64,000 nt of DNA from Parcubacteria group bacterium (GTDB taxonomy: Bacteria; Patescibacteriota; Minisyncoccia; Moranbacterales; UBA11712), in assembly GCA_041659065.1 (NCBI GenBank), contig JBAZYY010000004.1, forward strand, positions 2,406 to 66,405. Direction: 5' to 3'. Of this stretch, positions 14,313 through 32,651 are shown piece by piece (position 1 is the stretch's first letter; the number at the start of each line of letters is the position of its first letter). The position numbers were made by a program, and so were the translations under genes. A model generated the notes under the pieces. The model was not told the DNA's origin. It saw only the letters and a list, made by a program, of their open reading frames with translations, and did no database searches.

Positions 14313-15428
14313 ATGCAATTCAAAAACCCCAAATTAACCAAACGCAGACGAATCACCATCGCAGCCTCATCCATAGCCATCGCGCTCTTGGCCGGCATGC
14401 TGATTGATTTTTTTGAATCGAAGAACGAAACAAGTCCTTTGATTGGCGCGCAGGAAAATGTCATTTTACTGTCCCCAAAGGGTCCGACAACAATCGTGGA
14501 AAAAACCGATACGGGAGCCGATTTTTCAGCCATTGATTCGTCGCTTGCCGATAGGCTTGGGCTTCAGCGCAACAAGCTCAAACGCCGGGTCATCAGCGCC
14601 ACCGGAGTCCAAGTCCGAGAAACGGTAAACGCGGAGTTTATCCTGGGAAACCAGACCATCAGTTCCATCCTTTCGGTCGCCGACCGCTCCCAGCTCAACA
14701 CGGACATGATTGTCGGGCGACAAGACCTCTTGGGATTCACGATTGACCCGGCCCGCCAGTTTCTGAACGAACCAAAAGTCCCCAGCAACCAAAAATTTTC
14801 TTGGGCTATGCTCATTGCCCGCTCCGCCAACCGAGCCGTAAGCAAAACTATTCTCATAATTCCCATTCTGGGAGCGCTAGTTGTTTTGCTTAATCTTATG
14901 GGAGGAATCAAAACATTTGGCATATTCGCTCCCGTCGTAATTGCCCTGTCATTGATTTTGATGTCCCCTAACATTATTCAGGGGATTTTGATATATATTT
15001 TTCTCATTTCTATTGGCACCGCCTTTAAAATCCTCCTTTTTGACCGGCTCGAGCTGCCGCACATCGCCGAAATGTCACTTATCATGTCCGCCGTAGTGCT
15101 CACTCTCGTGGCTTTTTCTTTTCTTCCGCTTGGATTTCAAATTGCCGTCACCACCGTTTTCTTTCCGCTAATTATCACAACTCACATCATTGAAAGATTT
15201 TCCAAAACCGTAACTGAACATCGAATTGGAGACGCTATTTTCCTGACTGTCGAAACCTTGGCTGTTGCTATTGTGCTAACTTTCATCGGCAGTTATCTCA
15301 TCACACAATCCTACGGAGCGATTTGGATAACATTTGCTATTGCGATCCTCATCGCTATTGCTGTTGGCTATTACAGCGGAATGCGGCTGACAGAATTCTT
15401 CCGCTTTAAACTTTTGCAAAAAAAATGA
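14313..15428 (+). CDS. Fusion of a retropepsin-like (RimK-associated 'ATP-dependent zinc protease', PF05618-like) domain to a ~6-7 TM membrane domain
   Basis: N-terminal TM, then KTDTGADFSAIDSS ... ADRSQLNTDMIVGRQDLLGFTIDP (DTGA-type aspartic protease signature). The C-terminal 230 aa are polytopic hydrophobic. The stop overlaps the next start (ATGA). Confidence 0.55.
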   Translation: MQFKNPKLTKRRRITIAASSIAIALLAGMLIDFFESKNETSPLIGAQENVILLSPKGPTTIVEKTDTGADFSAIDSSLADRLGLQRNKLKRRVISATGVQVRETVNAEFILGNQTISSILSVADRSQLNTDMIVGRQDLLGFTIDPARQFLNEPKVPSNQKFSWAMLIARSANRAVSKTILIIPILGALVVLLNLMGGIKTFGIFAPVVIALSLILMSPNIIQGILIYIFLISIGTAFKILLFDRLELPHIAEMSLIMSAVVLTLVAFSFLPLGFQIAVTTVFFPLIITTHIIERFSKTVTEHRIGDAIFLTVETLAVAIVLTFIGSYLITQSYGAIWITFAIAILIAIAVGYYSGMRLTEFFRFKLLQKK

Positions 15429-16291
15429 AAACTCTTTCCGAAAAATTATTTTCCCGCCATAAAATTCCGCTTGGGATGAACCTTCGCAATTATCTGATCC
15501 GGGAATACAACTCCTTCGAGTCACTTGATCTTGCGAAAGACAAATCCGGCGCCAAGCGGCTTTTTTCGGAGCATGGCATTATTACCCCGAAAACTTTTTT
15601 TGAAATAAAAAGTTTCTCTGATCTTAGTAAAATTTCTCTTTTCCCCGATGAATTTGTGATAAAACCGTCCCGCGGCTTCGGCGGTAACGGAATTATGGTA
15701 CTTCAAAAAAACAGCCAAGGTTTTCTGGATCCATCGGGAGAAGTTTTTTCAGAAAATAAAATTCGAAAACACATTCGAAAGATATTGGACGGTGAATTTT
15801 CCGGACACAAGGAAGAAGACGTCGCGATCGTTGAGGAAAGAATTTTTGCCTCGCCCAAAATAACTTTCAAAGAATCCGCCGGTCTCCCTGACATTCGTAT
15901 TTTTTGCGTGAACTATGTTCCGGTGATGGCTATGATGCGGCACTCGACTAAGGCCACTCGCGGACGAGCCAACCTGACGGTCGGCGCCATCGGGATCGGG
16001 ATCGACGTTGAAACCGGAAGAGTGACTCACCTTTTTTCCAAAAAAGAAGAACGCGAATTCAAACTTTCGGATTTTGATATTCCGGAAAACTTCCGCGTTC
16101 CTCATTGGAAGCAGCTGATAGAGGCCTCTATAGAAGCTTCTAAGCTTTCCCAGCTTTCTATTTCAGGCGTGGATCTCATCATCGATCGCAATGACCGAGT
16201 CGTCCTAATTGAAATCAACGGCCGTCCGGGCATCGAAATCCAAAACGTGAACAAAAAATCTTTGCTGGAAAGCATGAGGCTTCTTTCATAA
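15425..16291 (+). CDS. RimK-related ATP-grasp ligase (alpha-L-glutamate ligase-like)
   Basis: ATP-grasp signatures FVIKPSRGFGGNGIMV and DLIIDRNDRVVLIEINGRPG. Translationally coupled to the upstream protease/7TM gene. Confidence 0.7.
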   Translation: MKTLSEKLFSRHKIPLGMNLRNYLIREYNSFESLDLAKDKSGAKRLFSEHGIITPKTFFEIKSFSDLSKISLFPDEFVIKPSRGFGGNGIMVLQKNSQGFLDPSGEVFSENKIRKHIRKILDGEFSGHKEEDVAIVEERIFASPKITFKESAGLPDIRIFCVNYVPVMAMMRHSTKATRGRANLTVGAIGIGIDVETGRVTHLFSKKEEREFKLSDFDIPENFRVPHWKQLIEASIEASKLSQLSISGVDLIIDRNDRVVLIEINGRPGIEIQNVNKKSLLESMRLLS

Positions 16292-18595: not shown

Positions 18596-18754
18596 TTATT
18601 CTTCCGGTGGCATTTCTGGAGTTGGCTCAGCTGGAACAGCTGGCTCTTCCGGAGTTGCTTCCGGCATAGTCGTAGGCTCATCCGCAGGAGGAGTCATTGG
18701 CGCAGTTTGAGTATCATCGCTCTGCGGAACTACCGGGTTCATGTCGTCTGTCAT
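18596..18754 (-). CDS. Small acidic Pro/Glu/Thr-rich protein (last ORF of the large minus-strand operon)
   Basis: MTDDMNPVVPQSDDTQTAPMTPPADEPTTMPEATPEEPAVPAEPTPEMPPEE. Low-complexity and disordered, so it could be non-coding. Confidence 0.3.
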   Translation of the reverse strand: MTDDMNPVVPQSDDTQTAPMTPPADEPTTMPEATPEEPAVPAEPTPEMPPEE

Positions 18755-18790
18755 GATGTTTGAATTAAAAATTAAAATATCAATTTTCAT

Positions 18791-21331
18791 TTATAACGGT
18801 TTCTCCCCCATGTCGAATGCGTCAGCGGTCGCAGGTGCGGTAATAAAGCTGGCCCGTTTCATAATCTCTTCATTAACTATATCACGATTCCGGCCGTATT
18901 TCAATTTTGAAAGCTCTTTAATAGCTTCGGCTATTTGCGGATTTCCTTTTGTGGGAGGATAAGTTTTCATATTGAACGGCGAAGCAACCTGGCTATTGAT
19001 CAAAAGTTTCATAAAGCAATTCCTGTTATCGACATTCATTAGGTCGTTCGCGTCAAAAACAGGCTCGTATTGCTTCTGCAAAAATTCCGCGTCCTCCGCG
19101 CCAACTCGGAACGAACAAATCGAACCGACATTCCCAAAGACAGCCTTTGAAATTTCTTCTTTGAGTTGGGCAATAAATTGGTGCGCTATTACCAACGCCA
19201 AACGGTATTTCCTGGCCTCCGAGAGTATCTGCGCAATCGAATCAGTCGTGAAATTTTGGAATTCATCGATATAGAGATAGAAATCTTTTCTTTCAGATTC
19301 CTGCATATCAACCCTTGAAAGAGCAGAGATAAGTATCTTCCCGACAATTATCATGCCGAGCAGATTCGCGTTAATTTCTCCAATCTTACCTTTCGACAAA
19401 TTGACCAGGATTATCTGCTGGTCATCCATCGCCTGCCGAAAATTGATGGTCGTTTTTTGCTGGGCGATAATCGGGCGCATCATGTCATTGGAGATGAACT
19501 GGGTAAGTTTTGAAGTGATATAAGGAACCATATTCGCGAGCGCCGCCTCTCCTCCGGCCTTTTCCGCTTCCTTCTCCCAAAAGTTTTTCACGACCGGATT
19601 TGTGCAATGTTCGAGCTTTAGATGCCTGAATTCCTCGTCCGCCAGCACCCTCGGGATTTCCATCAGCGTCGATCCGGATTCGGGATGTTCCATGACGAGA
19701 AGAGACGCATTTCGCATGTATTGCTCAAACATCGGTCCGCCGGTCTGGCGAAGATCGTAAAGTTTATCAAAAATATTAATAAGTTCGTTTATGACAAATG
19801 TTTTTTGCTCAGGTTTGGAAACGTCATATTCCAACATGTTAAGTCCAAATGGCCGTTCCATGTCTGACGGATCAAAATAAATCACGTCTTCGGCGCGCTC
19901 TTTAGGGATACACTCGGTCACATGCTCTATGAATTCCCCATGCGGATCAATAACACAGACTCCCTCGCCATTATTGATGTCCTGTTTTACCATTTCTTCC
20001 ATCATTGTCGATTTTCCTGTACCGGTTTGTCCAATAATATAGAAATGGCGCCGGCGATCGTCATCCGCGTGCCGAATCACTGTTTCCGCTCCCCTATAAT
20101 CATTGAACCCGAGCCTGATGCCCTCTTTCGAGATATTTGAAGGCGGAGCGGCAGTTCTGGCTTTGAGCCAGGATATCTTGGGTGTTTCAGTGGAAAAAAG
20201 CGGAAAATGGAAAACGCTCGTTACTTCCTCCGAAGAAAATATGAAGCTTTGATCATCCCTGAAATTTCGGAAGATAAAATCAAAAGCGACTCCTTTTTTC
20301 TTTCTGGGCCCGGTTTCGCGAAAGACCCGAAAAGAATTAATGCCCGGATTTTCGTATTGGATAAAAGCATTTTCAAGTTCGGCCAGAATTTCTTCAGATC
20401 GTTCCTGAGTAAGGGCTGAAGCAACCAGACGGATATTTGTGCGAAAACCCGGCTTGTTAGCTTTGGCTTCAACTTTCTTTATGACTTCTTGTTCTTCGGG
20501 AGTAAGCTGGATCGGTTCTCCGGTCGGACCGTACTTATTTTTATTTTTCTGGTCATCGCCCTTGTTCGTTAAAATTCCAAACAATCCCCTTAAGAATTGC
20601 CGGAAGGCGTTATCCCGCTTTACTTCGTCCAATCTCCTGCCTTGCTGCATTTTATGCGCCACTTCCCGCCCGCGGTGCCGCCAGCTTCCGCGCGCCGGCT
20701 TAACCAAAACCTGAATAGCCGCGCCTTCCTTCTTTTCGTCAAACTTGCCCAGGACATTAGTAATATTATTGATCGGATCCGACTCAAGAGTCTGATAAGT
20801 CCTGATGGGAAGAAAATATTTATCTTTGAGTTCAAGATAGGCTGATGATGTAAAACTTCCAGGCGTAAATATATTGTAATCCTTAACTCTTTCAATGGAA
20901 GCTTTGGGATAGAAACTATGGATTTGCTTCTCCACTATGCCAATGAACTTTTTGGGCGCACCGACAAAAAAACAAATTTCGTCGTTATCAGACGGATTGG
21001 CAATTTCCAGCGCCACCACCGCATCACCGTAAATCAACCGATGAAACAGGCTGGCGTTTTCTTTGATATTTCCAAGACTCGCCAGAACGTGCTCCATCAC
21101 GGATATTATTTCCTTTTCGGTTTTGGGCTGCTGCTGTTCCCCGCCCTGGCTTTCGCGCTTCAAAGGCCGACTGACTTTCACAATATCAATGTCCATGTTT
21201 AAAGAACGGGTAATCTGACCACGAAAAAGAAACAGACTCCGAAAAAGCAGCCATAGGCCGGTAGCAAGACTAATAACAGCCAATAGTCCGGCTAACGGAT
21301 ATAAAATTAGATTCAAGCCAAGTGTATCCAT
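18791..21331 (-). CDS. Membrane-anchored FtsK/HerA-TraG/VirD4 superfamily P-loop translocase ATPase (T4 coupling-protein-like) with a ~430-aa unique N-terminal domain
   Basis: N-terminal TM (LILYPLAGLLAVISLATGLWLLF). Walker A HFYIIGQTGTGKST. Walker B FYLYIDEFQNF. This is followed by LALVIAHQ and a ...CSFRVGAEDAEFL arrangement as in FtsK/TrwB motors. No gamma/winged-helix domain is evident. Confidence 0.7.
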   Translation of the reverse strand: MDTLGLNLILYPLAGLLAVISLATGLWLLFRSLFLFRGQITRSLNMDIDIVKVSRPLKRESQGGEQQQPKTEKEIISVMEHVLASLGNIKENASLFHRLIYGDAVVALEIANPSDNDEICFFVGAPKKFIGIVEKQIHSFYPKASIERVKDYNIFTPGSFTSSAYLELKDKYFLPIRTYQTLESDPINNITNVLGKFDEKKEGAAIQVLVKPARGSWRHRGREVAHKMQQGRRLDEVKRDNAFRQFLRGLFGILTNKGDDQKNKNKYGPTGEPIQLTPEEQEVIKKVEAKANKPGFRTNIRLVASALTQERSEEILAELENAFIQYENPGINSFRVFRETGPRKKKGVAFDFIFRNFRDDQSFIFSSEEVTSVFHFPLFSTETPKISWLKARTAAPPSNISKEGIRLGFNDYRGAETVIRHADDDRRRHFYIIGQTGTGKSTMMEEMVKQDINNGEGVCVIDPHGEFIEHVTECIPKERAEDVIYFDPSDMERPFGLNMLEYDVSKPEQKTFVINELINIFDKLYDLRQTGGPMFEQYMRNASLLVMEHPESGSTLMEIPRVLADEEFRHLKLEHCTNPVVKNFWEKEAEKAGGEAALANMVPYITSKLTQFISNDMMRPIIAQQKTTINFRQAMDDQQIILVNLSKGKIGEINANLLGMIIVGKILISALSRVDMQESERKDFYLYIDEFQNFTTDSIAQILSEARKYRLALVIAHQFIAQLKEEISKAVFGNVGSICSFRVGAEDAEFLQKQYEPVFDANDLMNVDNRNCFMKLLINSQVASPFNMKTYPPTKGNPQIAEAIKELSKLKYGRNRDIVNEEIMKRASFITAPATADAFDMGEKPL

Positions 21332-21402
21332 TTGTTAATAGAATTGCGAATAGGGAATTCTGAATTGCGAATTAGAATATTGAATATTAGGATAAAATCC
21401 TT

Positions 21403-21801
21403 TCAGGATTCAAACTTATTAATCCTAGTTGCTTTAATAAGGCCAATAATTAGCTTATGACAAACAACAGTTTGATTGGCAATTTTCATAAATTCGGAAT
21501 TGGATAAATAGCCAACATCTCTGGCTACAAGAGTTTGATTCTGGATTTCTATCAGAGAAGTATGCGATGTGTTATAATATTTATTTTTTTCCTTCGAAGA
21601 ATGCTTCGCGAAACCTTCCGCTATATTTGAAGTAAAAGAAACGACAGCTCGGTTAAGCTGATTAGATAAACCAAATTTTTCACAATCAGGAAATTTTTTC
21701 GTGGTAGTATAAATCAATAAAACTAGCTTATGCCCCTCCTGCCACACAACTAAATCAGTGAACTTTGTTATTTTTCTAAATTCGTTACTCTTGATTCCCA
21801 T
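21403..21801 (-). CDS. Four-helix-bundle protein (23S rRNA IVS protein / Avd-like family)
   Basis: Family signature DLVVWQEGHKLVLLIYTTTKKFPDCEKFGLSNQLNRAVVSFTSNIAEGFAK. Flanked by AATTC-rich degenerate repeats. Confidence 0.8.
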   Translation of the reverse strand: MGIKSNEFRKITKFTDLVVWQEGHKLVLLIYTTTKKFPDCEKFGLSNQLNRAVVSFTSNIAEGFAKHSSKEKNKYYNTSHTSLIEIQNQTLVARDVGYLSNSEFMKIANQTVVCHKLIIGLIKATRINKFES

Positions 21802-21822
21802 TCCAAATTCCCAATTCTAAAT

Positions 21823-22317
21823 TCACAATTCTTTTAACAACCCCTTACTGACCAGCTGTGAACGAAGATCATCCGCTATCATGCGGTCGTGCAGTTCGTC
21901 CAGAGTGTAATTGTCATTCGCATCCAGATGTTCGGCAACTTTAATGGCATGTTCCGGCCCTCTTTGAAGCGCCAGTTCAACCAGCTTATCGAGTTTTTTT
22001 TCATATTCATCAATCTGAGAAACAGCCTTCGCGTCGTCCGTCACGCTGGTAACCGCTGCCGGTTTTTGAGTGTTTAAGGTTTTTCGAGCTGTTTCAATTT
22101 TCTCCGAGACTTTCTCTTCTTGTGCCTCAACCTTGAACTCCCCTTCAGGCGAAACTCCCTCAGTTTCTTTGGATTCCGACTCTGCAAAAGTTTCTTTTTC
22201 CTGCTCCTGTGGCTCTTTGGCTTCAGGAGCTATAAATCCGCCGCCTACCCCGGTCATTTTTTTCTTTAAATCAAGATCCTCCTTTTCAATTGGCTCCTGG
22301 TAATTTGATTGCGCCAT
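21823..22317 (-). CDS. Acidic E/K-rich hypothetical protein (164 aa)
   Basis: Co-oriented in the operon. Low-complexity N-terminus and a structured C-terminus (AIKVAEHLDANDNYTLDELHDRMIADDLRSQLVSKGLLKEL). Confidence 0.5.
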   Translation of the reverse strand: MAQSNYQEPIEKEDLDLKKKMTGVGGGFIAPEAKEPQEQEKETFAESESKETEGVSPEGEFKVEAQEEKVSEKIETARKTLNTQKPAAVTSVTDDAKAVSQIDEYEKKLDKLVELALQRGPEHAIKVAEHLDANDNYTLDELHDRMIADDLRSQLVSKGLLKEL

Positions 22318-22358
22318 GGATTTTTAGCATTAAATTCAAAAATGTTCTTGTATCAAGT

Positions 22359-22712
22359 TTACTCTGCCGCCAGCTGTTCTTCTCCCTTTTCTGTATCTGC
22401 TCCGCCGAAACTATCCAGATCTTCCTTTATTTCCGCCTTGAACTCATCTACAACTTTTTTCACGAAATCGTCGTAATTCTCAATTTTTTCCCGTAAAAAA
22501 ACTTCCACTTTTTCTTCTTCGGCTTTATTGTCAAGTAAATCCATCAGCGCGCCCCGATCTTCCTCTGAAAGTTTTTCCATCGTTTCTATATACAGCCGCT
22601 TCAGAATCACTTCCATCATATCAACCAAAATTTTTTCTTTTCTCTCTTCGGGCAAATCTACAATACCCAGTTCGTCCAAAATCGTTTGTTTTAAGATTGT
22701 ACTTTGAGACAT
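22359..22712 (-). CDS. Acidic hypothetical protein (117 aa)
   Basis: Co-oriented. Helical and acidic (pI visibly low). No family recognised. Confidence 0.5.
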   Translation of the reverse strand: MSQSTILKQTILDELGIVDLPEERKEKILVDMMEVILKRLYIETMEKLSEEDRGALMDLLDNKAEEEKVEVFLREKIENYDDFVKKVVDEFKAEIKEDLDSFGGADTEKGEEQLAAE

Positions 22713-22728
22713 AAATTCAATTTAATAC

Positions 22729-25140
22729 TTATAATTTATAAATATTCCTTAGCTCGACTATCTTTTCATGCGGAATTTTAATTAGATAATCTCTCATGTC
22801 TTGCCCCGGCCTGTAAGGAAATTTTTTAAAGAGTTCTGCAAGAAACTTGGCGCTTTTTTGATTATATTCTCCTTCGGCAAAAGTTAAATTTTCTGGCAAT
22901 GAACCGCTGGGCAGCGTAGCAAAACTTTTGACCGCCTCGGCAACATTTTCAACTTTTTCCGACAACCTAAAACTATTTCCAATAGATTTTTTCATCACAT
23001 GCTGCAGATACTCATAATTAGTCCTTAGATCATCCATCGCCATGGAGTGGGCTTGGGCATCCAATTCGTCTGGCTGCAATACATATTCCCTAATTTTCGC
23101 GTTTTCATCTAGAATTTTTTGAGCCGCAATCTCCCTGGGAGAACGAGTAACGCCCTTGCGTGCGCCTGCTTCCTCCGCATTATATGATCCCCTACCCTTT
23201 GAAGGAATTTCCGACGCAGAACTTCTTGCTCCAGCTCCATGATGCATTTTTACCGCTTCATGCCCCCCACTGCCTGATCCGCGATTCCAATTCGTATCAA
23301 AAATCATTCCTCGTCCGGAAGTATCATCTACGGAAACGTCGATTATCCCGCCTTTTCCAATTGACATATGGAATTTGTCACCCGGATGGATTATATGCCT
23401 AAGGTGGCTCATTTCATCCGCATTATATTCCAACCCAAATTTATCCAATAAATTCGGCAGAGCCTGGCCCATTGTTTTTGATGCTGCGAATTTTTCCAGC
23501 GCTTGATTTTTGCTCATGCCCGGATAATTTTTAGGATCAAAACCGCATTTATCAGCATTCGCTTTGATGAAGTTTTTTAGAATTCCATAAGTTGTGTCAC
23601 CCGGTTCTACTTTATAATTAGCCTCAGCCAACTTTTCGATCGCCTGGCCAGCTTTTGCTCCCTCGCCAGTCGGAATTTCTGGACCTCCAACATTTTTAGG
23701 CCCTGCTGCGGAGGAATCGGCCATAACCTTGAATTCATGAGATCCTTTTCCGCCCGTTATCTCGGGTCCTTTTGGATCTACCGGCCCAAATTCGGATGAA
23801 TCCCCCATGATTGGCGGAAATTTCGATCCTTTTCCTGCAGTAGTTGAGATATCAGCTGCATACGCCGCTTTCGGTCCGATACTCATCCCTCCCCAAAGGC
23901 TCACGACTTTATCAAGCGCATGTCCGACTGAATGTCTTGCTGATTGAACAGTCTCAGAAGCCCTAATTTCTCCCGCAAAATGACTGATTAGGGACCCTAA
24001 CAAAAAAGTTCCTCCGCCAATCAAGATTGCATACAGTTTATGTTTAGCATCGGCCTCTCCGAAAGCTGCTTCTCGATCCTCAACAGTCATTTGCTCATCT
24101 GTTTTATGCCTATTCTCAAGCCCATTTACGATATCCTTCCACCTTAGATCCGTTTTCTGCTTTATAAGCGCTAACTTGGCTTCCACTCTTCGGGCAGTTT
24201 CTATCTTCACTTTTTCAAGATGGGCAGTTTCCATCTTCTTTTTCGCGGAATAACCGGCTCCTAACGCCCCGAATCCTCTCATCCCAATAGCCGTGATGCT
24301 GCCTGCGCTTAATCCCAAAGCGGCAATGCCTAAAGCAGGCAGAGCTGCTCCTAACGCTGTAGCTATGGCAATCGAAATGCCAGCTGAAGTCGCCATCCCC
24401 TTCGCGAAGCTCTTCAATGTCGTTTTTCCATTCTCTTGATATTTGCTCCCAACCCATGTCCTGAAATTCTTGCTTAAATTTGCAAAACCGACTAAGGCCC
24501 GGCCAGTCAGGCTGCTTTCTGCCCGCATATCTACTTCCGCGTTTCTAGTTCTATTTGATATGGTTTCTTTGTCATAGTGATCCAAAAACTGCGCCATTTT
24601 CCTGTCGTTCCCCTTGAAAGCTCCCAAGCCCGCATCCATGAGCGCGTTCAGCAGTAATTCTCTTTTATTTACACATGCTTGAACGGACGGATCGTGCACC
24701 ATCTTTTTTTCCCATCCAATAGCCTCGGCAATTACCTGCCATGATTTCTTGTTTTTGAATCGCCCTTCGGCAATCATTCTTTCATTGGCTTCAAATTCTG
24801 CCTGCGCTTTTTCATACATTTCTCTCCTTCTCTGACCTTCCTTCATCTTTTTTGCTAAATCTTCCTTTGTCAGCGGCTTACCCTCTGCTTTTCCATGCTT
24901 ATCCGGGTCATATTTAACAACTTCTTGGTTCGTCCGGCTGCCACGTGTTCCAATCTCTTTTCCATGGCTCGCCGTGCCATAATGGACTTTATCAGGCGCA
25001 ATTTTAAGATCAGGTTTTCTGCCAGGATAATTATCAGCCGCTCCAGTCGGAATAGGATTTCCATATTTTTCATCAACTTTACCCAGCGACTGTTTAAATT
25101 GTGCTCCAAAATCTGGTGGTAATATTTCGGGGTTACCCAT
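22729..25140 (-). CDS. 803-aa hypothetical protein with a central glycine-zipper TM hairpin and a LysM-like segment
   Basis: AGISIAIATALGAALPALGIAALGLSAGSITAIGMRGFGALGAG and LYAILIGGGTFLLGSLISHFAG hydrophobic segments. YKVEPGDTTYGILKNFIKA resembles the LysM core. The remainder is unannotatable. Confidence 0.6.
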   Translation of the reverse strand: MGNPEILPPDFGAQFKQSLGKVDEKYGNPIPTGAADNYPGRKPDLKIAPDKVHYGTASHGKEIGTRGSRTNQEVVKYDPDKHGKAEGKPLTKEDLAKKMKEGQRRREMYEKAQAEFEANERMIAEGRFKNKKSWQVIAEAIGWEKKMVHDPSVQACVNKRELLLNALMDAGLGAFKGNDRKMAQFLDHYDKETISNRTRNAEVDMRAESSLTGRALVGFANLSKNFRTWVGSKYQENGKTTLKSFAKGMATSAGISIAIATALGAALPALGIAALGLSAGSITAIGMRGFGALGAGYSAKKKMETAHLEKVKIETARRVEAKLALIKQKTDLRWKDIVNGLENRHKTDEQMTVEDREAAFGEADAKHKLYAILIGGGTFLLGSLISHFAGEIRASETVQSARHSVGHALDKVVSLWGGMSIGPKAAYAADISTTAGKGSKFPPIMGDSSEFGPVDPKGPEITGGKGSHEFKVMADSSAAGPKNVGGPEIPTGEGAKAGQAIEKLAEANYKVEPGDTTYGILKNFIKANADKCGFDPKNYPGMSKNQALEKFAASKTMGQALPNLLDKFGLEYNADEMSHLRHIIHPGDKFHMSIGKGGIIDVSVDDTSGRGMIFDTNWNRGSGSGGHEAVKMHHGAGARSSASEIPSKGRGSYNAEEAGARKGVTRSPREIAAQKILDENAKIREYVLQPDELDAQAHSMAMDDLRTNYEYLQHVMKKSIGNSFRLSEKVENVAEAVKSFATLPSGSLPENLTFAEGEYNQKSAKFLAELFKKFPYRPGQDMRDYLIKIPHEKIVELRNIYKL

Positions 25141-25142
25141 AA

Positions 25143-27197
25143 CTAGTGTTTTATATTTCTATATATTTTATTATATATCCTATCTATCATTTCGTCACGA
25201 TTTGCACCCTCGAAAGCCTCCTGCTGAGCAAGGGATTCTTCGTATACTCTGCCAATATAATTTTTTAATAATCTTTCAATAGCTTCTTCGCCATCGTAAT
25301 TCTCCTCCGGCATCCTATTGACCGCATCCTGATATTCATCCAAATAATCCCTAATTCTTTTACCCTTATCATCTCTAAACAAAATTAACGCATCAATATA
25401 TTCATCTTGCCTTCTTAGTTTTTCTGCTTCTGACATCTCGACAGCATCAGCTTCTTCCGCTTGAGGCGCTGTAATTTCTAATAATTTTCTTATCTTTATA
25501 TTTATAATCATCTCCACAATATTATCGACATCCGCCTGATTTTTTATAATATAATCCGCTCTTTCCAATTCCAATATAGGTAAGTGAGATTTAGTTAACA
25601 TACCTAAAGCATCAGAAATTAGAGAATCTTTTTTGCTCCTAATTTCTTCCGCAACTGCCTTTATCACGTCGTTGTCAATAATTAATCCCATTTCTCCCCC
25701 AATTTTAATTACTCTTTCGGCCAGGTCATCCCCTTCTCTCCCTCCAGGTTGTAAAAGGACGAGGAGTTTATCCTTAACATATTCGCCTATTGCAAAATTT
25801 TTTCTCTTTTTTTCTTGATTCTCGCGATCTTTTGCCATAGCCTCTTTAAAGCTGTCCTCCATTTGATAGCCTGTGTTTCCGGATAAATTTCTCATCACAT
25901 CTTCCAGCGTTGTTTTCAACGGACCCTCTCCCTTTTTCTTCGTTATTAGATGATATCTGTCGCTCACTCGAAAACCTTCTGAAAGCGTAAAGTTCATGCT
26001 CTTAGTCGTCTGAATAGAGCAAAAACCTCCGCTCTCGTCACTGTTATAAATTACATATCCCCCGAAGCCGAAATATCGAGCCGCGATATAACCCATCTTG
26101 ACTCTCGGTCCCCTGTGGATACCACTTGCATCCACTCTTCCCAAATCAACCAGCACATCGCCGTGCAAGGTATCTCCGGTTTTCAGCACAAAACCTTCCT
26201 CCTTCATTTTTTCAATGGAACCTTTTGAATATCGGTCACGTTCAAGGATAAGATTCTTCTGAGCTTCTTTGAATTTACACGGCTTGCCTGTCTTCGGATC
26301 CGTGTAGACTAAGTTCTTCAGGTAGTTTGGATCCATTTTCTCATATGGGCTGAATTCGGAGTTAATTAACATCTGTTCCTTGAAAATCTGCAGTATTTGG
26401 TCGCTATTTAGATATTTCCTGAGACCCATCAAATTCTGGTGATAATTTTCAAAAATATCTTTGACTTCCTTATCTTTATAATTCATATTGTCTTCTTTGG
26501 TGGCGAATTCAACGATTCTTTCCAGAATTTTCGAATCTTTTAGGAGGCCGAACTCCACCAGCCCCTTGTAGATAAATTTCGCCGTACTATCCTCTCCGGA
26601 TGACCTGTCTTTGTCGCTAACAACCATTAATTTACCATCGTTTTTTAAAACCCATCCCTGATCTTTGGAAACATCGAATGCAAAACCGGCCTCAGGTAAT
26701 TTAGATTCATCGTCCTGGGGTATATAATTTACTTTCGAGATATCAATCCCAGCTTCACTGAGAAGCGCCAGGCAAACTTGGCCATCGAGATCGGTTTTAT
26801 CTTTAAGCTCGACTTCTCCTGTTTTGGCATCAGTTCTCAATTTGCCATGAGTGATAAGCGCCCTGAAAACAAACTCCTTCGCTTTTTCCCCGATTAATTC
26901 ATCCGCTTTTTCTTGCACCTCTTTATTATTAAGGCCTTCGCCCGCCAGATCTCTGAATGTTAAGCTAGGATCGTTTTCCAGCACCATTCGCGCTGGAAGT
27001 CTAGCTACTCCCGACACCCCACCAGGCTTCGGATCAGAAACAGCTCTCTCTTCTTCCGGCCCAAAATAGTGCTTCTTAACTTGTCTCACACCAAAAGGAA
27101 CCTTCTTGGTTTTTTCAGACAGCTTTGACATTAAATCCTGATCTAGCTTTCCTAGAGCTTCTGCAGTTTCAGGATTAATTTTAAGTAGTTCTATCAT
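25143..27197 (-). CDS. 684-aa hypothetical soluble protein
   Basis: Long ORF 2 nt upstream of the next gene. No P-loop, TM or known motif recognised. Confidence 0.6.
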   Translation of the reverse strand: MIELLKINPETAEALGKLDQDLMSKLSEKTKKVPFGVRQVKKHYFGPEEERAVSDPKPGGVSGVARLPARMVLENDPSLTFRDLAGEGLNNKEVQEKADELIGEKAKEFVFRALITHGKLRTDAKTGEVELKDKTDLDGQVCLALLSEAGIDISKVNYIPQDDESKLPEAGFAFDVSKDQGWVLKNDGKLMVVSDKDRSSGEDSTAKFIYKGLVEFGLLKDSKILERIVEFATKEDNMNYKDKEVKDIFENYHQNLMGLRKYLNSDQILQIFKEQMLINSEFSPYEKMDPNYLKNLVYTDPKTGKPCKFKEAQKNLILERDRYSKGSIEKMKEEGFVLKTGDTLHGDVLVDLGRVDASGIHRGPRVKMGYIAARYFGFGGYVIYNSDESGGFCSIQTTKSMNFTLSEGFRVSDRYHLITKKKGEGPLKTTLEDVMRNLSGNTGYQMEDSFKEAMAKDRENQEKKRKNFAIGEYVKDKLLVLLQPGGREGDDLAERVIKIGGEMGLIIDNDVIKAVAEEIRSKKDSLISDALGMLTKSHLPILELERADYIIKNQADVDNIVEMIINIKIRKLLEITAPQAEEADAVEMSEAEKLRRQDEYIDALILFRDDKGKRIRDYLDEYQDAVNRMPEENYDGEEAIERLLKNYIGRVYEESLAQQEAFEGANRDEMIDRIYNKIYRNIKH

Positions 27198-27203
27198 ATA
27201 ATT

Positions 27204-28871
27204 TTACTTTTCCCCAACAATTTCGTTCATACGACCTTTTATTATATAGTCCGCTATTCTCTCTACATCTTCCGGCCTAAACGAACCTTCATATATTTTT
27301 TCATCTATGGGCCGCCATAGCTTTTCCAAAAATGATACGAGATGACCTTTTAAATCTTCGAGACTTATATCGCGCCCTTCTTTTTCCGTAACTATTCTGG
27401 GAGCTTCTGTGATATATTGCTGTATAAAATCGTGAGTATACTTTAAAAATCCCAGTTGATCAGGCGTAATTTTAATTTCCTCCGGCGAAGATGCCTCCTC
27501 GACTCGTATCTTTTTCCCCCTCGCTAAATATTCCAAAGTAAGCAGAAATTTTACCTGTTCCCCGATCTCGGGATGGTTTTTGAATCTTTCTCGTATTTTT
27601 TCCTTTAAAATTTCATCTCTTTTTCTCGCTCGTTCTTTTTCCAGCTCTTTTCTTTCTTTCTCTTTTGTCTGGGCAATTCTTTCATTGAGCTTAGCATAAT
27701 CTTCATCATTTCTGACTTCTCCCCATAGTTCATCCATCTCCTCGGGAGTAAAATTCCCCATTTCATCAAACGCTTTGAGATGTTCTAGCGTAGGCTTATA
27801 TTTCATAGCCTTTTCGACACGGGCTAAAGCCTCCTTCTCCAATTCCCCGACTGCTGAAAATGTTCTTCGGGGATAATCAAGTTCTTTGATATAAGCAAGC
27901 GCTTTTTCAATTTGTCCCCTCGCTTCTTTTGCAAATCTTTTCACCACCGCTTCAAAATTTTTCGGTTTCTTTTCTCTTCTTGGATTTATATCCGGATTTG
28001 GCTTAGACCCAAACTTATCAAATTCCATCCAATCCGAAATTCTTTTTAATTGCGGATAATTTTTAAATGCTGAATCGATTAAAAATTCCCTGCACGCTAT
28101 TGAGATTGATGCTAAATCGTTATCTCCCCTGCTATTAATAATTAGTTTTACCGCCTCTCTATACTTGGACAAATTTTTCTCGTTATAAAGATCAGCAATC
28201 TCTTCTCCAAGCTCTTTAGCATCTGCTTCGCTAAATCCTCTATTAGGGACTTCGTTTTTTTCAATCCGATCAATATAAGCTCTGATATTTCTATATTGAA
28301 GATTAAGCTCATTCAATAAAGTCTTTTTAATCACTTCGTTCAGCCTCGATTCTCCCTCTGCTGGCGCTCCCTCGCCACCCTCCTCTTTATTTCCCCAATT
28401 TGCCTCAATCTCAAGAATCCTCTCCAGAGCCTCTTTTTGTCCTTTGCTTCGCTTTTTTTCCGGAATATCGTCGATTATACTTGCCGCGGTTTGAAGTGTG
28501 ATTTTTTCAAATTCACGATGAATTTTTTCTTTTATCGACTGCTTATTTAAATCAACTGCGTCAATTTTATCTAAATTATTCCCGAGACTGACCTTAATAT
28601 CTTCATAGATAATATCGACAAGCAGATCCCAATTTGTTAAAGCATGATCTTGCATCTGTCTGATTGCTGCTTCCGGCATTTCTAATTTGTATTTTTTTAA
28701 TGCTCCCGAGACCTGTTCAGGATTAGAAATCAAATCCAGCAATTGATCCTCGAGGATTTTTTTATTATCCGGCAATTCAAAATCAACCGGTTCGGAATCG
28801 TCCACCCAATCTCCTGCTTTCACGCCCCAATGTTCAACTTTATTGTTCTTTTCCATAACACAACAAATCAA
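27204..28871 (-). CDS. 555-aa hypothetical protein, E/K/R-rich with coiled-coil character (first gene of the operon)
   Basis: The first ATG is at 28856 (MEKNNKVEHWG). The ORF-track start at 28871 is TTG. No family recognised. Confidence 0.55.
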   Translation of the reverse strand: MICCVMEKNNKVEHWGVKAGDWVDDSEPVDFELPDNKKILEDQLLDLISNPEQVSGALKKYKLEMPEAAIRQMQDHALTNWDLLVDIIYEDIKVSLGNNLDKIDAVDLNKQSIKEKIHREFEKITLQTAASIIDDIPEKKRSKGQKEALERILEIEANWGNKEEGGEGAPAEGESRLNEVIKKTLLNELNLQYRNIRAYIDRIEKNEVPNRGFSEADAKELGEEIADLYNEKNLSKYREAVKLIINSRGDNDLASISIACREFLIDSAFKNYPQLKRISDWMEFDKFGSKPNPDINPRREKKPKNFEAVVKRFAKEARGQIEKALAYIKELDYPRRTFSAVGELEKEALARVEKAMKYKPTLEHLKAFDEMGNFTPEEMDELWGEVRNDEDYAKLNERIAQTKEKERKELEKERARKRDEILKEKIRERFKNHPEIGEQVKFLLTLEYLARGKKIRVEEASSPEEIKITPDQLGFLKYTHDFIQQYITEAPRIVTEKEGRDISLEDLKGHLVSFLEKLWRPIDEKIYEGSFRPEDVERIADYIIKGRMNEIVGEK

Positions 28872-29076: not shown

Positions 29077-30825
29077 ATGAAAAGAAAAAAAACGGTTTCG
29101 AGAAAAAAAACCGCGATTGTTTCTGATGTCGAGCCTAAAAGCAATTTCTCACGCCACCATAAGTATATTTTTATCGGCCTGGTTGTTGTCCTTCTCTTGA
29201 TAGCTTTTGGCATTCGAACCTATCATCTGACATCTCTTCCGCCGGGGATATACCCGGATGAGGCCGTTAATGGCACAGATGCCATCCGAGCCAATGAAAC
29301 CGGGCACTATCAGCTTTTTTATTCCAACAACTACGGCCGGGAAGGCCTCTTCATGAATCTCATCGCTTTGGGATTTTTGTTTTTTGGGGTAAGTATTGTC
29401 ACACTCAAAATGTGGTCCATTTTTTTTGGGACTTTGACTGTCCTGGGAATGGTTCTTCTGGGGCGCGAGCTGTTCAAGTCCTGGAGAGCAGGCTTGATTG
29501 CGGGGTTTTTGATCGCAACTTCATTTTGGGCAATCAATTTCAGCCGAATCGCCTTTCGCGCCAATATGCTACCTTTTGTTCTTGTTTTTTCGTTCTATTT
29601 TCTTTTTCGAGGGCTGCGAATTTACTCCGCACGAATTTCCCAAAATCAAAGGGATACAACTAAAAATTTGGATTTTTTTTCGAAAATAAAAAATTGGTGC
29701 GGGGCAAACTATAATTATATTTTAGCAGGAGCTCTGTTTGGACTCGGTGTGCATACCTATATCGCCTTCCGCATTGCACCGGTAATACTAATTGCCATTT
29801 TTTTCGCCTTTTTGCTAAGTGGAAAAAATTTTTTGCGAACCCATTGGAAGACAATTCTGATATTCACGCTTTCGATCATAGTAGTCGCGCTCCCGATGCT
29901 CCTGACTTTTTATTATCACCCTGAGTATTTTGAAACCCGTTCAGAGGCTGTCTCGGTTCTAAGCCCGAAGGTCAATCAGGGCCATCCCCTGAAAGCCCTG
30001 GCAACCAGCATAGCATTGAACTTAAAAATGTTTAATTTTCATGGAGACCAAAACTGGCGACATAATTTGCCCAGCCAGCCTGAACTCCAGCTCTTGGTGG
30101 GCGTATTTTTCCTTCTTGGAATAGGATATTATCTGGCTCAATTCTTCCGACTCCTTTATCTTCGAATCCGGAGAGAAAAGAGAAGCGAGGAGTTTGTCAT
30201 ATCGACTTTCCTGCTGTCCTGGTTTTTTGCCATGCTTCTGCCTGGCATACTGGCCTACGAAGGCCTTCCTCACTCCCTGCGAGTTATCGGCGCCATGCCG
30301 GTTGCGCTCTTATTCGCCACCTTTGCGTTCGAAAGTGTATTTAAGTTTTTTGATAAAATTCAAAATCGCTATTGGCGGACCCTTACATATGTCATCTTAA
30401 CTGTTGCTATTATCTCAAGCGGCGTAATTTCCGTTAGGCGTTATTTTGTGGACTGGGGCAATAGCCTTAATATTCACGCGGCTTTCTCCCAGAATCTCAA
30501 GAATATGGCGCTGTTTCTTAATAACCTGCCCCCGAAATACAATAAATACGTAGTGGCTAACGCCGGCGGACAAATAATGAACGACGGTATGCCTGTTGCA
30601 GCTCATGTAGTTGAGCTTTTAACCCATTATCGAACGCCAGGAATTGTTTTTTTGCGCCCCGACTTTGATCCGAAAATCATCAAGCCGCGAGCCAAAATAG
30701 CACTTATGTATTACAATGGAGAGGTAATCGCCAAGATAAAATCCATTTATCCCGACGCACAGGTTCAGAAGCTTGATCCTCAACCGGGAAATGGCACGGA
30801 CTATTTTGTGGTAAATATTAATTAA
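29077..30825 (+). CDS. GT-C fold glycosyltransferase, ArnT/PMT (GT39/GT83-like) family
   Basis: Polytopic membrane protein. The N-terminal loop YPDEAVNGTDAIRA carries the DE motif. Divergent from the large operon. Confidence 0.75.
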   Translation: MKRKKTVSRKKTAIVSDVEPKSNFSRHHKYIFIGLVVVLLLIAFGIRTYHLTSLPPGIYPDEAVNGTDAIRANETGHYQLFYSNNYGREGLFMNLIALGFLFFGVSIVTLKMWSIFFGTLTVLGMVLLGRELFKSWRAGLIAGFLIATSFWAINFSRIAFRANMLPFVLVFSFYFLFRGLRIYSARISQNQRDTTKNLDFFSKIKNWCGANYNYILAGALFGLGVHTYIAFRIAPVILIAIFFAFLLSGKNFLRTHWKTILIFTLSIIVVALPMLLTFYYHPEYFETRSEAVSVLSPKVNQGHPLKALATSIALNLKMFNFHGDQNWRHNLPSQPELQLLVGVFFLLGIGYYLAQFFRLLYLRIRREKRSEEFVISTFLLSWFFAMLLPGILAYEGLPHSLRVIGAMPVALLFATFAFESVFKFFDKIQNRYWRTLTYVILTVAIISSGVISVRRYFVDWGNSLNIHAAFSQNLKNMALFLNNLPPKYNKYVVANAGGQIMNDGMPVAAHVVELLTHYRTPGIVFLRPDFDPKIIKPRAKIALMYYNGEVIAKIKSIYPDAQVQKLDPQPGNGTDYFVVNIN

Positions 30826-30845: not shown

Positions 30846-32651
30846 ATGTTAGAAAAGTACTCAAAGTATGTTGTAATTGGCGTGCTAGCAGTTATGTTCG
30901 CCATTTCTCTTGGCACTATGTTGGGGGATGCCGCTATCATGGATGAGGTCGCTCATATTCCGGCTGGGTATTCCTACGTCCGCTACCATGATTACCGGCT
31001 CAATCCTGAACACCCGCCTCTTCTCAAAGACCTGGCTGGTATTCCGCTCCAGTTTCTCAAGCTTGATTTTCCCGCTCAAAACCAGTTTTGGACAACCGAC
31101 GCTAACGGACAATGGGAAGCCGGGTGGGAGTTTTTATACCTGCCCCAGAATAATACCGAACAAATTTTATTTTGGTCCCGCCTGCCGATTTTAATCCTAT
31201 CGCTTTTCTTGGGCTGGATGATTTACTACTGGACAAGAAAACTATTTGGAATTAAAGCCGGCCTTTTGGCGCTCGTGATATACGCGTTTGATGCCAATAT
31301 TCTCGGCCATGACCATTACGTAACGACAGACCTTGGCATCGCCGCCTTTTTGTTCTTTGCTTTTTACTTTTTCATAAAATATCTCAAAACCCCAAGCTAC
31401 AAGACAATTATCCTGGCAGGAATTTTCATGGGGCTGGCACAACTCGCCAAATTCTCCTCCGTCCTGATGTTTCCCGTTTTCGGACTCGCTCTGCTTCTTT
31501 ATATCTTCTTTCGCAGGAACAAACTGCCCTTTTCATTTTTGGGGTCCGGAAAGATCAAGAAATTCTGGGTCCAAAAATTATATTTTTATGCCACAACGTT
31601 TATTCTCGCCTTGATCATCCATTTGGCGCTGATCGGCATTGTTTATGAATTCAATGTCTTCTCGATGCCTCCTGCCAAAATTCACCAACTCGCTGACACG
31701 CAAATCTACGGAAAGATTGCCACCATAGCAAAACCTTACATCCATCAGATGGCTGATAATCCGATTCTGCGGCCCTACAGTCAGTATTTAATTGGACTCG
31801 TAATGGTTTTTGGCAGAGTTGCCGGTGGGAATACCACCTATTTCTTCGGCCAAGTGACTAATCAAAGCTTCAAAGAATATTTTCCGATGGTTTTCCTCAT
31901 CAAGGAACCTCTGCCCAATCTCCTGCTGATGCTGATGGCTTTCGCTACTGGTTTATTCCTCCTGCTGAAACGCAATTTATCCCAATTTCCGAAAAAAATA
32001 TGGAACAATATAAAAAATTATCTCGATGGGAATATTGCCGAATTTTCAATGATTTCTTTTATCGTTCTCTACGCCTACGTCAGCATTACGGGTAATCTGA
32101 ACATCGGCTTCCGCCATCTTTTCCCGATCTTACCCTTTGCGTATGTCCTCGTAGCGAAAGAAGTATCCTTTCTGGGAAGCGAAATAAGCGCAAAATATAG
32201 AAAATATTTTTGGGGGTTCATTTCTTTGCTGTTGGCATGGCTTGTAGTGGGAACTCTCCTTGCGTATCCGTACTATCTGGCATATTTTAATGAACTCATT
32301 GGCGGATCAAAAAACGGCTACAAGTATGTAACCGATTCAAATGTTGATTGGGGCCAGGATCTCAAGAGACTGTCTGCGTGGGTGAATGAAAATAATATCC
32401 AGAAAATACGAGTTGATTATTTTGGCGGCGGAGACGTAAAACATTATCTTGGAGACAAAGCTGTGATTTGGCACGCTCACATGGGCCAAGAAAATGGCTG
32501 GTACGCCATATCAGCGACATTCCTGCAAAATTCCCTCTATTACAAGATTGTTCAGGGCGAGCCGGATTATGAGTGGCTGCGCGAGAGAAAGCCTTACGCT
32601 GAAATCGGAAATTCGATCTTAATCTACAAGGTCGAAGACCTCGAAAAATAG
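30846..32651 (+). CDS. Second GT-C glycosyltransferase (PMT_2/ArnT-like)
   Basis: DEVAHIPAGYSY ... NPEHPPLLKDLAG motifs in the first periplasmic loop; more than 10 TMS. Confidence 0.7.
   Translation: MLEKYSKYVVIGVLAVMFAISLGTMLGDAAIMDEVAHIPAGYSYVRYHDYRLNPEHPPLLKDLAGIPLQFLKLDFPAQNQFWTTDANGQWEAGWEFLYLPQNNTEQILFWSRLPILILSLFLGWMIYYWTRKLFGIKAGLLALVIYAFDANILGHDHYVTTDLGIAAFLFFAFYFFIKYLKTPSYKTIILAGIFMGLAQLAKFSSVLMFPVFGLALLLYIFFRRNKLPFSFLGSGKIKKFWVQKLYFYATTFILALIIHLALIGIVYEFNVFSMPPAKIHQLADTQIYGKIATIAKPYIHQMADNPILRPYSQYLIGLVMVFGRVAGGNTTYFFGQVTNQSFKEYFPMVFLIKEPLPNLLLMLMAFATGLFLLLKRNLSQFPKKIWNNIKNYLDGNIAEFSMISFIVLYAYVSITGNLNIGFRHLFPILPFAYVLVAKEVSFLGSEISAKYRKYFWGFISLLLAWLVVGTLLAYPYYLAYFNELIGGSKNGYKYVTDSNVDWGQDLKRLSAWVNENNIQKIRVDYFGGGDVKHYLGDKAVIWHAHMGQENGWYAISATFLQNSLYYKIVQGEPDYEWLRERKPYAEIGNSILIYKVEDLEK

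Follow-up and report, generated by a model that had tools for sequence, protein, structure and literature searches.

An orphan type IV coupling protein homologue and its conserved gene module in the Moranbacteria lineage

Patescibacteria, ultra-small bacteria that rely on host cells, contribute a large share of bacterial diversity. Their type IV secretion system (T4SS) derives from the monoderm mating-pair formation class MPF-FATA (Quinonero-Coronel et al. 2025, PMC12102498). In the one genetically tractable species, Southlakia, epibiotic growth requires the T4SS, whose cluster has no recognisable coupling or relaxase proteins and for which no substrate is known (Wang et al. 2023, PMC10633639). 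Across the phylum, VirB4 is found in 2,417 of 3,035 genomes and homologues of the VirD4-type coupling protein (type IV coupling protein, T4CP) in 2,918 (96%), the latter in 5,713 copies of which only 148 lie near virB4 (PMC12102498). These orphan T4CPs, near-universal in the same phylum, away from virB4 and without a relaxase, are among the closest described counterparts of the protein considered here: an 846-aa ATPase encoded in an operon of minus-strand open reading frames (ORFs) within a 64,000-nt stretch of contig JBAZYY010000004.1 (assembly GCA_041659065.1; “the window” below) from a Parcubacteria group bacterium.

Both papers omit the gene neighbourhood of the orphan T4CPs, the domain families DUF8128 and DUF5663, and the two further partner types represented in the window by a 164-aa and an 803-aa protein (164-type and 803-type); no paper in the searchable literature mentions DUF8128, DUF5663, PF26449 or the module around the ATPase. 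An earlier note on this DNA, made without database searches, had put the operon forward as a candidate undescribed system, and this stands for one part only. Orphan T4CP homologues were published in 2025 (PMC12102498), and neither the ATPase family nor its occurrence as an orphan in Patescibacteria is new; the partner module, its conservation gradient, the VirB4-like two-domain layout of the ATPase and a family of DHH-like domains in the large proteins, on the other hand, appear to be undescribed.

All eight ORFs of the operon were scanned against Pfam, NCBIfam, PHROGs and PADLOC, and a genome scan with one genome per species returned at least 513 species with a relative of the ATPase. The neighbourhoods described below are those of 82 loci, namely the best 80 of these (at least 513) species and two metagenome look-ups, all of Moranbacteria type, in which ORFs were called anew and labelled by jackhmmer and hidden Markov models (HMMs).

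The ATPase and its plasmid relatives

Judged by its sequence, the 846-aa protein is a catalytically intact T4CP (VirD4/TrwB) homologue. The motifs that the earlier note had picked out, GQTGTGKST (Walker A), YIDEFQNF (Walker B) and LALVIAHQ, are all present and invariant across 93 homologues, as are the catalytic residues G434–S441 of Walker A, D689/E690 of Walker B, R707 and Q718. Pfam T4CP families cover residues 426–742 at scores above their cut-offs (TrwB_AAD_bind, 48.7 bits against 20.5; T4SS-DNA_transf, 27.0 against 20.1) or, for TraG-D_C, exactly at it (22.0 bits), and DUF87, the HerA central domain, scores 43 bits. None of the curated NCBIfam T4CP subfamilies (TraD, CD1115 VirD4-like, MobC) reaches its cut-off, the best being SXT_TraD (44.9 bits against 366) and CD1115 VirD4-like (40.5 against 250); because the scores fall so far below the cut-offs of the named subfamilies, the ATPase forms a distinct T4CP subfamily. 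Against PDB sequences, the family profile matches DotL (2e-10), anti-phage HerA (4e-10), TrwB (2e-8), FtsK (6e-5) and VirB4 (0.1), and the placement in the HerA/FtsK–VirD4 clade proposed earlier is borne out by these T4CP profile matches and by the fold matches given below.

Between its membrane anchor and the nucleotide-binding domain, the ATPase has a region that had been described as a ~430-aa domain of unknown function. It now bears a Pfam name, DUF8128 (PF26449), spans ~350 aa, and is found in the precomputed annotation of all 120 listed homologues, one of them identical (P0001), although PF26449 was not among the matches of the Pfam scan run on the window protein. TrwB, VirD4, DotL and Cag-beta lack this extra domain, and where T4CPs usually have two N-terminal transmembrane (TM) helices the window ATPase has one predicted, in a hydrophobic segment at aa 1–37 that is conserved in homologues. 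The NCBI model of the protein (801 aa) begins at M46 and drops this helix (window 21196–21331, the first 45 codons), which is nearly invariant in the 93 homologues; since the hydrophobic helix is kept in all of them, the 846-aa start is correct. A first AlphaFold2 (AF2) model built from 14 sequences was too poor (predicted local distance difference test, pLDDT, 53), but the one rebuilt from the 93 homologues is usable (pLDDT 74.8). It has one long helix at aa 7–46, the ~350-aa α/β domain of DUF8128 and a RecA-like domain with an all-α insertion between strands 483–486 and 640–644 (local pLDDT ~75–85). As HerA and VirB4 also carry helical insertions, this feature alone does not discriminate in favour of a T4CP.

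A fold search with the model gives scores of 20.6 for HerA, 19.8 for DptH-C, 19.6 for DotL, 19.2 for TrwB, 19.0 for the VirB4 C-terminal domain, 18.0 for Cag-beta, 15.6 for TcpA and 15.4 for FtsK. Foldseek places full-length TrwK/VirB4 first (E 6e-13 to 1e-10 over 900–950 columns, at TM-scores of only 0.25–0.31) and TrwB next (E 7e-10, TM-score 0.55), the same order as with the poorer first model. VirB4/TrwK and the ATPase both consist of an N-terminal domain followed by a C-terminal RecA-like ATPase, and the model suggests that DUF8128 resembles the VirB4 N-terminal domain. The likeness is unproven: the TM-scores are low, the PDB profile match is at E 0.1, hhalign against plasmid VirB4 aligns the Walker B region only (probability 24%), and the VirB4 model TIGR00929, with a cut-off of 643 bits, scores 16.5. 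Where a plasmid has both genes, the ATPase family takes the T4CP position and not that of VirB4.

The earlier note had reckoned with a bona fide FtsK carrying a gamma domain, and this identity was rejected: FtsK_SpoIIIE matches at E 0.18 and over the P-loop only, there is no gamma-domain match, and a single TM helix takes the place of a four-helix, multi-pass anchor. A wider version of the idea, a division- or chromosome-linked DNA translocase substituting for FtsK/SpoIIIE beside the ftsQ/mur region, would draw on the shared superfamily, on the conservation of the ATPase at housekeeping level, and on the FtsQ and Mur ligase genes that lie a few kb from the operon in the window and in 32 of the loci. 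These same mismatches, the place of FtsK well below T4CP and HerA in profile and fold searches, the plasmid coupling proteins that make up the full-length relatives, and a linked wall-reaching membrane protein and hypervariable proteins that segregation does not need make such a translocase very unlikely.

HerA, of the repair or the anti-phage kind, was rejected as an identity too, the combination of a HerA-type core with an N-terminal HAS-barrel and an effector (NurA, Sir2, DUF4297) not being found. PADLOC returns weak matches, confined to the P-loop domain, for HerA models and mad8 (1.3e-15), and defence-system HerA is among the PDB and fold matches; this is what can be said for the anti-phage module on a HerA-like ATPase that the earlier note had listed among its options. 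There is no nuclease, Sir2, DUF4297 or methylase partner, however, and no full PADLOC system is matched; neither the N-terminal membrane anchor nor DUF8128 is a HerA feature; and the locus, vertically inherited and conserved at housekeeping level, is fixed and syntenic in 80 or more species with ATPases 57–83% identical, unlike patchy mobile defence islands. We give this option next to no credence.

The relatives of the ATPase point in another direction. More than 7,900 database proteins match it, the best 120 of which are 59–83% identical and carry PF26449 and PF10412, and tblastn against plasmids finds full-length relatives (aa ~96–825, 22–28% identity, E 1e-29 to 1e-58). In Bacillus subtilis plasmids, the relative lies directly upstream of a replication-relaxation relaxase, followed by TcpC-like, TcpD, TcpE and a VirB4-like ATPase; an Embleya plasmid has, in this order, PrgI-family, VirB4-like, ATPase relative, relaxase and NlpC/P60. 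Large Bacillus phages carry relatives as well (phrog_5156, 3.5e-83), and gp156 of phage G adjoins the “VirB-like” gp155. In a joint alignment, homology extends over the whole length including DUF8128. The monoderm plasmid T4CPs have the same architecture of DUF8128 and nucleotide-binding domain, can be aligned over ~730 residues and match in their Walker motifs; those of Bacillus bear the annotation “DUF87 domain-containing protein,” and that of Embleya shares the N-terminal membrane anchor. Because of these relaxase/VirB4 neighbourhoods and the full-length homology, the ATPase family is the coupling protein of monoderm conjugation systems, in agreement with the published MPF-FATA origin of the Patescibacteria T4SS (PMC12102498).

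Unlike the plasmid proteins, to which it is ~22–28% identical, the window ATPase is chromosomal, vertically inherited and highly conserved, and has acquired lineage-specific partners (DUF5663, 164-type, 803-type); no gene for a relaxase, VirB4, VirB3 or hydrolase adjoins it. It is best read as a monoderm-plasmid “DUF8128” T4CP that lost its relaxase and T4SS neighbours. One could argue from the plasmid and phage homologues, and from the missing relaxase and integrase, that the locus is instead what decay has left of an integrated conjugative element or prophage, now functionless; but purifying selection acts on the ATPase as strongly as on UvrA/UvrB and every catalytic residue is invariant, synteny with core genes extends throughout the lineage, and the GC content of the operon equals that of its surroundings. 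A remnant is thus extremely unlikely.

Synteny and divergence of the partners

The window is chromosomal DNA of a small-genome bacterium, with genes for UvrA, UvrB, UvrC, IMPDH, aminoacyl-tRNA synthetases, PBP2, MurA, FtsQ and a Mur ligase, one tRNA gene and no rRNA gene; its GC content is uniform (~0.41–0.47), and the database names of its matches place the source within the Parcubacteria / Moranbacteria group. All eight minus-strand ORFs of the earlier note were recovered with the coordinates and sizes claimed, and the measured gaps of 6, 2, 16, 41, 21, 71 and 0 nt reproduce the 0–71 nt spacing. The first ORF (555 aa) is called publicly as a 550-aa gene from an ATG five codons downstream, probably its true start. 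Promoter and terminator scans of the operon were uninformative. The notion of an eight-gene unit does not hold up: as set out in the last section, the four-helix-bundle gene was inserted, and it is doubtful whether the 64-aa ORF is a gene.

Across the loci, the recurring order is FtsQ (in some loci), two divergent PMT-type GT-C glycosyltransferases, one to three large proteins, DUF5663 (~100 aa), the 164-type protein (~145 aa) and the ATPase. The 164-type protein stands directly upstream of the ATPase in 71 of the 82 loci; DUF5663 is found in 52, always directly after the 803-type membrane protein, which is the last of the large proteins and whose module is present in at least 52; the order is always the same. 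Co-occurrence of the ATPase with its partners in other genomes therefore holds for these three, conserved in dozens of species. It fails for the two proteins at the head of the operon, the 555-aa protein having no relatives in the 82 loci and the domain of the 684-aa protein occurring in 8 of them. The large proteins of related loci sum to ~1,000–2,000 aa, with a single protein of 2,033 aa in one (L075), and the genes of the 164-type protein and the ATPase are typically ~40 nt apart, but overlap by 1 nt in L001. Of the 56 loci with 8 kb or more of sequence upstream, 50 have a divergent PMT gene there, whereas conservation is lacking on the downstream flank. One locus (L068, 12641–14914) has a second pair of an 803-type (629 aa) and a DUF5663 protein (112 aa) directly downstream of the ATPase, and because the two were duplicated together they behave as a unit.

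Conservation is graded along the operon. In the same genome pairs, the ATPase, UvrA, UvrB and DUF763 are each ~80% identical to their near relatives, the GT-C enzymes 62–70%, FtsQ 51–57% and the two small partners ~50%, while the 803-aa protein reaches 23–30% and the 684-aa protein 41% (in one genome only); for the 555-aa protein there is nothing to compare. Such a gradient is consistent with a conserved motor whose substrates or surface parts experience diversifying pressure.

The 803-type protein can be counted among the genuinely conserved components; in most loci the protein at the same position has a ~390-aa module in common with it (aa 89–530 in the window copy; E 7e-57 in an iterative search). 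The window copy is predicted to consist of a coiled-coil N-region, a glycine-zipper TM pair (aa 249–287), a charged Lys/Glu-rich loop and a third TM helix (aa 369–390), followed after the module by a Pro/Ser/Ala/Gly-rich linker, a short LysM-like motif and a variable C-terminal domain. TM prediction confirms two or three of the glycine-rich segments noted earlier. The LysM claim survives only as a short motif, x-V-x-K-G-D/S-S/T-L, which recurs in the family, but no LysM profile matches (E up to 1 for the window protein and up to 0.01 for that of L031). Nothing in Pfam, NCBIfam, PHROG or PDB matches the 803-aa protein, the module profile giving coiled-coil noise against PDB, and a word-indexed search returned only 2 matches among 5.8e9 proteins. 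The last 160 aa form one family in 24 of the 52 loci, the window copy being a singleton, and no conserved C-terminal signal was found in 803-type proteins. By the positive-inside rule, the N-region and loop would be cytoplasmic and the C-terminal half outside the cell, and the role at the envelope that the earlier note had suggested is plausible, as is one at the host interface. The 803-type linkers, predicted to be extracellular and rich in Pro/Ser/Thr/Ala, would also suit O-glycosylation by the divergently encoded GT-C enzymes.

Both small partners are very acidic. The 117-aa protein (isoelectric point, pI, 4.35) matches PF18908 (DUF5663) over profile positions 1–84 of 84 at 30.3 bits (cut-off 23.7, E 6.2e-7). 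In the 164-aa protein (pI 4.67), an N-terminal EPIE..DLDL motif is followed by a disordered acidic linker and then by a conserved helical C-terminal domain of ~70 aa that ends in KGLLKEL; a database search yields 135 homologues, all close relatives, and no Pfam family. Profiles of the two types have no significant match in PDB, only coiled-coil noise. The proteins of the operon had been called unannotatable, which no longer applies to the 117-aa protein (DUF5663) or the N-domain of the ATPase (DUF8128) and remains true, in Pfam, NCBIfam, PHROG and PADLOC, of the 555-, 684-, 803- and 164-aa proteins. Matches of the large ORFs to phage-structural or housekeeping families, to which the earlier note had been alert, were not found.

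The central domain of the 684-aa protein (window 25788–26945) recurs in the 8 loci always inside the operon cluster, and belongs to a family of 281 clusters worldwide, defined here, in which it takes varying positions in proteins of 313–2,315 aa. In intact members, the motifs DxD, D, DHH and D are invariant and follow the order and spacing of the DHH/DHHA1 phosphoesterases (NrnA, PggH, RecJ, GdpP), and stand-alone members have 313–354 aa, as do NrnA and PggH. Pfam DHH is the only recurrent match to the family, though a weak one (seen in 4 of 12 members, at best with E 0.0029 and under the cut-off), and PDB entry 7d62 (PggH) aligns over motifs I–III at a non-significant E of 1.4–1.8. The family differs from the DHH/DHHA1 enzymes in lacking the GGGH motif of DHHA1 and in being embedded in giants as long as 2,315 aa, and none of its matches to them is significant. 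Where intact members have DHH, the window copy reads SDKD, and the triad is also lost in its three nearest relatives; with the DHH lost, it is at best an inactive member, probably a binding-only version.

The 555-aa protein has no homologue in the 82 loci and no family match (Pfam, NCBIfam, PHROGs, PADLOC). Proteins at the first position of other loci are heterogeneous orphans, unrelated to it and to each other, and a Pfam scan of these and of the giants in other loci brought up nothing except a weak J-domain in L001.

Possible roles of the module

We tentatively favour, as possible rather than probable, a vertically inherited chromosomal module of Moranbacteria built around a DUF8128-form T4CP, which would recruit substrates in the manner of a coupling complex and translocate them, probably via a distant T4SS. 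The ATPase would be held in the membrane by its one N-terminal helix and would act as an ATP-driven ring like TrwB, VirD4 and DotL, the oligomeric state being that expected from the family. Size, charge and fixed adjacency suggest that the DUF5663 and 164-type proteins may be adaptors or chaperones, as IcmS/IcmW/LvgA are for DotL and CagZ is for Cag-beta, although they have zero sequence similarity to IcmS, IcmW, CagZ, TraM or VirE1. Some T4CPs operate as pairs with a second membrane protein (PMC7431656). The 803-type protein would be the membrane partner here, its predicted topology leaving the N-region and loop in the cytoplasm while the linker (possibly O-glycosylated by the divergent GT-C enzymes), LysM-like motif and variable domain would reach the wall. 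The hypervariable soluble giants (the 555-aa protein, the 684-aa protein with its dead DHH-like domain, and other types elsewhere) could by analogy be cargo or accessory factors recruited by the complex. The likeliest route of translocation would be a T4SS whose genes lie elsewhere in the genome, with the host-cell interface as its destination.

The only genomic tie to a T4SS that we found is a pilin-like gene, 21–43 nt downstream of the ATPase, in three loci (L003, 12527–12940; L019, 5468–5875; L032, 12481–12894); it is absent from the window. Its products (135–137 aa) have a signal-peptide-like N-terminus and two hydrophobic helices, and match PF18895 (T4SS_pilin, VirB2-type) at 25.1 bits (E 1.8e-5), just under the cut-off of 26.6. 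The earlier note had found no VirB4, pilin, relaxase or integrase in the window, and for the ORFs scanned this is correct.

Several points weigh against this proposal. Its pilin tie consists of three loci and a score below the cut-off, and within 10 kb neither the window nor any of the 82 loci has VirB4, VirB6, a relaxase or another T4SS component, or an integrase; a second VirB4-like or T4CP-like ATPase is likewise missing over the same distance in every locus. T4CP homologues are commoner than VirB4 in Patescibacteria (2,918 against 2,417 genomes), and in Southlakia t4cp is non-essential though the T4SS is essential (PMC12102498). The module is not universal even within the Moranbacteria lineage, which is all that the neighbourhoods cover: a few divergent loci (L083, L072) hold the ATPase without DUF5663, 164-type or 803-type genes before it, and in L083, a complete genome (CP175956.1), it follows an HU-like gene. 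The fold search cannot tell a T4CP from HerA or the VirB4 C-terminal domain, and the adaptor and cargo roles are drawn by analogy.

Part of this evidence would suit a self-contained translocase, in which the ATPase, the 803-type protein and the two small proteins are an envelope machine of their own that exports or inserts large variable proteins, or moves nucleic acid, across a single membrane without VirB4/VirB6 or any T4SS. The absence of T4SS genes within 10 kb in all 82 loci, the dispensable Southlakia t4cp, and the excess of T4CP homologues over VirB4, at ~2 copies per genome and almost never near virB4, speak for it, as do the conserved polytopic membrane partner of the ATPase and its VirB4-like two-domain layout in Foldseek; the authors of PMC12102498 themselves hold that exaptation of T4CP homologues cannot be excluded. 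Yet the 803-type protein, with just ~3 TM helices, resembles no known channel, all family members that have been characterised work with a T4SS, and pilin-like genes do adjoin the ATPase in the three loci. We regard such a machine as rather unlikely, though not much less likely than docking on the distant T4SS.

The coupling module that we favour gives the orphan ATPase a defined and conserved context of two candidate adaptors, a membrane/wall partner, glycosyltransferases and hypervariable cargo candidates, and the question of what the T4CP does and what the T4SS carries becomes concrete enough for interaction, localisation and knockout work. From sequence and analogy, the locus offers putative adaptors and substrates for a secretion system that is essential and mechanistically opaque. 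A bolder proposal, which we consider unlikely, is a Patescibacteria-specific system for effector delivery or nutrient acquisition, in which an exapted coupling ATPase with a VirB4-like N-domain delivers the rapidly diversifying giants, some of them with nuclease or phosphoesterase domains of DHH type, to the host-cell interface; the two acidic adaptors and a glycosylated wall-spanning partner could assist, and exit could be via the essential T4SS or an own channel. If true, the essential Patescibacteria T4SS would gain both its missing coupling complex and its first candidate substrates, with a possible tie to the harvesting of host nucleic acid.

Inserted cassette and other genes of the window

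The features of the operon and its flank are collected in Table 1.

Table 1. Features of the operon and the adjoining glycosyltransferase genes, in window coordinates
Feature	Position	Strand	Description or evidence
64-codon Pro/Glu/Thr-rich ORF	18596..18790	-	Abuts ATPase stop codon; translation
T4CP-family ATPase, 846 aa	18791..21331	-	TM helix ~aa 7–37; DUF8128 ~aa 45–400; VirD4/HerA-type nucleotide-binding domain ~aa 405–800
All-α insertion of the ATPase	~aa 507–636, within nucleotide-binding domain		Predicted structure
Inserted cassette with four-helix-bundle gene (21403–21801, -)	21332..21840	.	PF05635; inverted repeats
164-aa acidic protein	21823..22317	-	Homologues; position before ATPase
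117-aa DUF5663 protein	22359..22712	-	PF18908
803-aa membrane protein	22729..25140	-	TM prediction; conserved ~390-aa module
684-aa soluble protein	25143..27197	-	Degenerate DHH-phosphoesterase-like domain ~aa 90–466; helical C-terminal half
555-aa (probably 550-aa) orphan	27204..28871	-	Soluble, acidic, highly charged; first operon position
Two PMT-type GT-C glycosyltransferases	29077–30825, 30846–32651	+	Pfam PMT, PMT_2

The 132-aa protein had been taken for a four-helix bundle of Avd/IVS type, and it is indeed a member of the 23S rRNA intervening sequence (IVS) protein family (PF05635, 104 bits against a cut-off of 33.8, E 6e-30; TIGR02436, 96.5 bits against 24, E 1e-27). The Avd equivalog of diversity-generating retroelements (DGRs), NF033474, scores 22.4 bits against a cut-off of 80, and because this cut-off is missed the protein is an IVS-type bundle and not a DGR Avd; a DGR was ruled out for want of an Avd-level match. 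Its gene is carried by a ~510-nt cassette between 47-nt imperfect inverted repeats (77% complementarity), which consist of tandem GAATTNN heptamers in inverted arrays, a motif enriched nowhere else in the window, and the cassette sits exactly between the stop codon of the 164-aa protein and the start codon of the ATPase. It looks like a small mobile or recombination-prone element. Since the four-helix-bundle gene is absent from 80 of the 82 related loci, it is an insertion and not a component of the system; the one other copy, in L027, is at a different position. The 64-aa ORF has no homologue or positional counterpart in any related locus and is for that reason doubtful as a gene.

Outside the operon, further genes of the window deserve mention. 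At 14313–16291, a 7TM_transglut-type membrane protein with an aspartyl-protease-like N-domain stands with a sugar-transfer-associated ATP-grasp enzyme, a probable peptide-modification pair. A class II tRNA synthetase of lysyl/aspartyl type at 39936–41825 is fused to a C-terminal DUF2000. A 664-aa ORF (59767–61761), for which Pfam gives no match at E up to 1e-5, adjoins a 440-aa protein with a CAP (cysteine-rich secretory protein) domain at 62101–63423.

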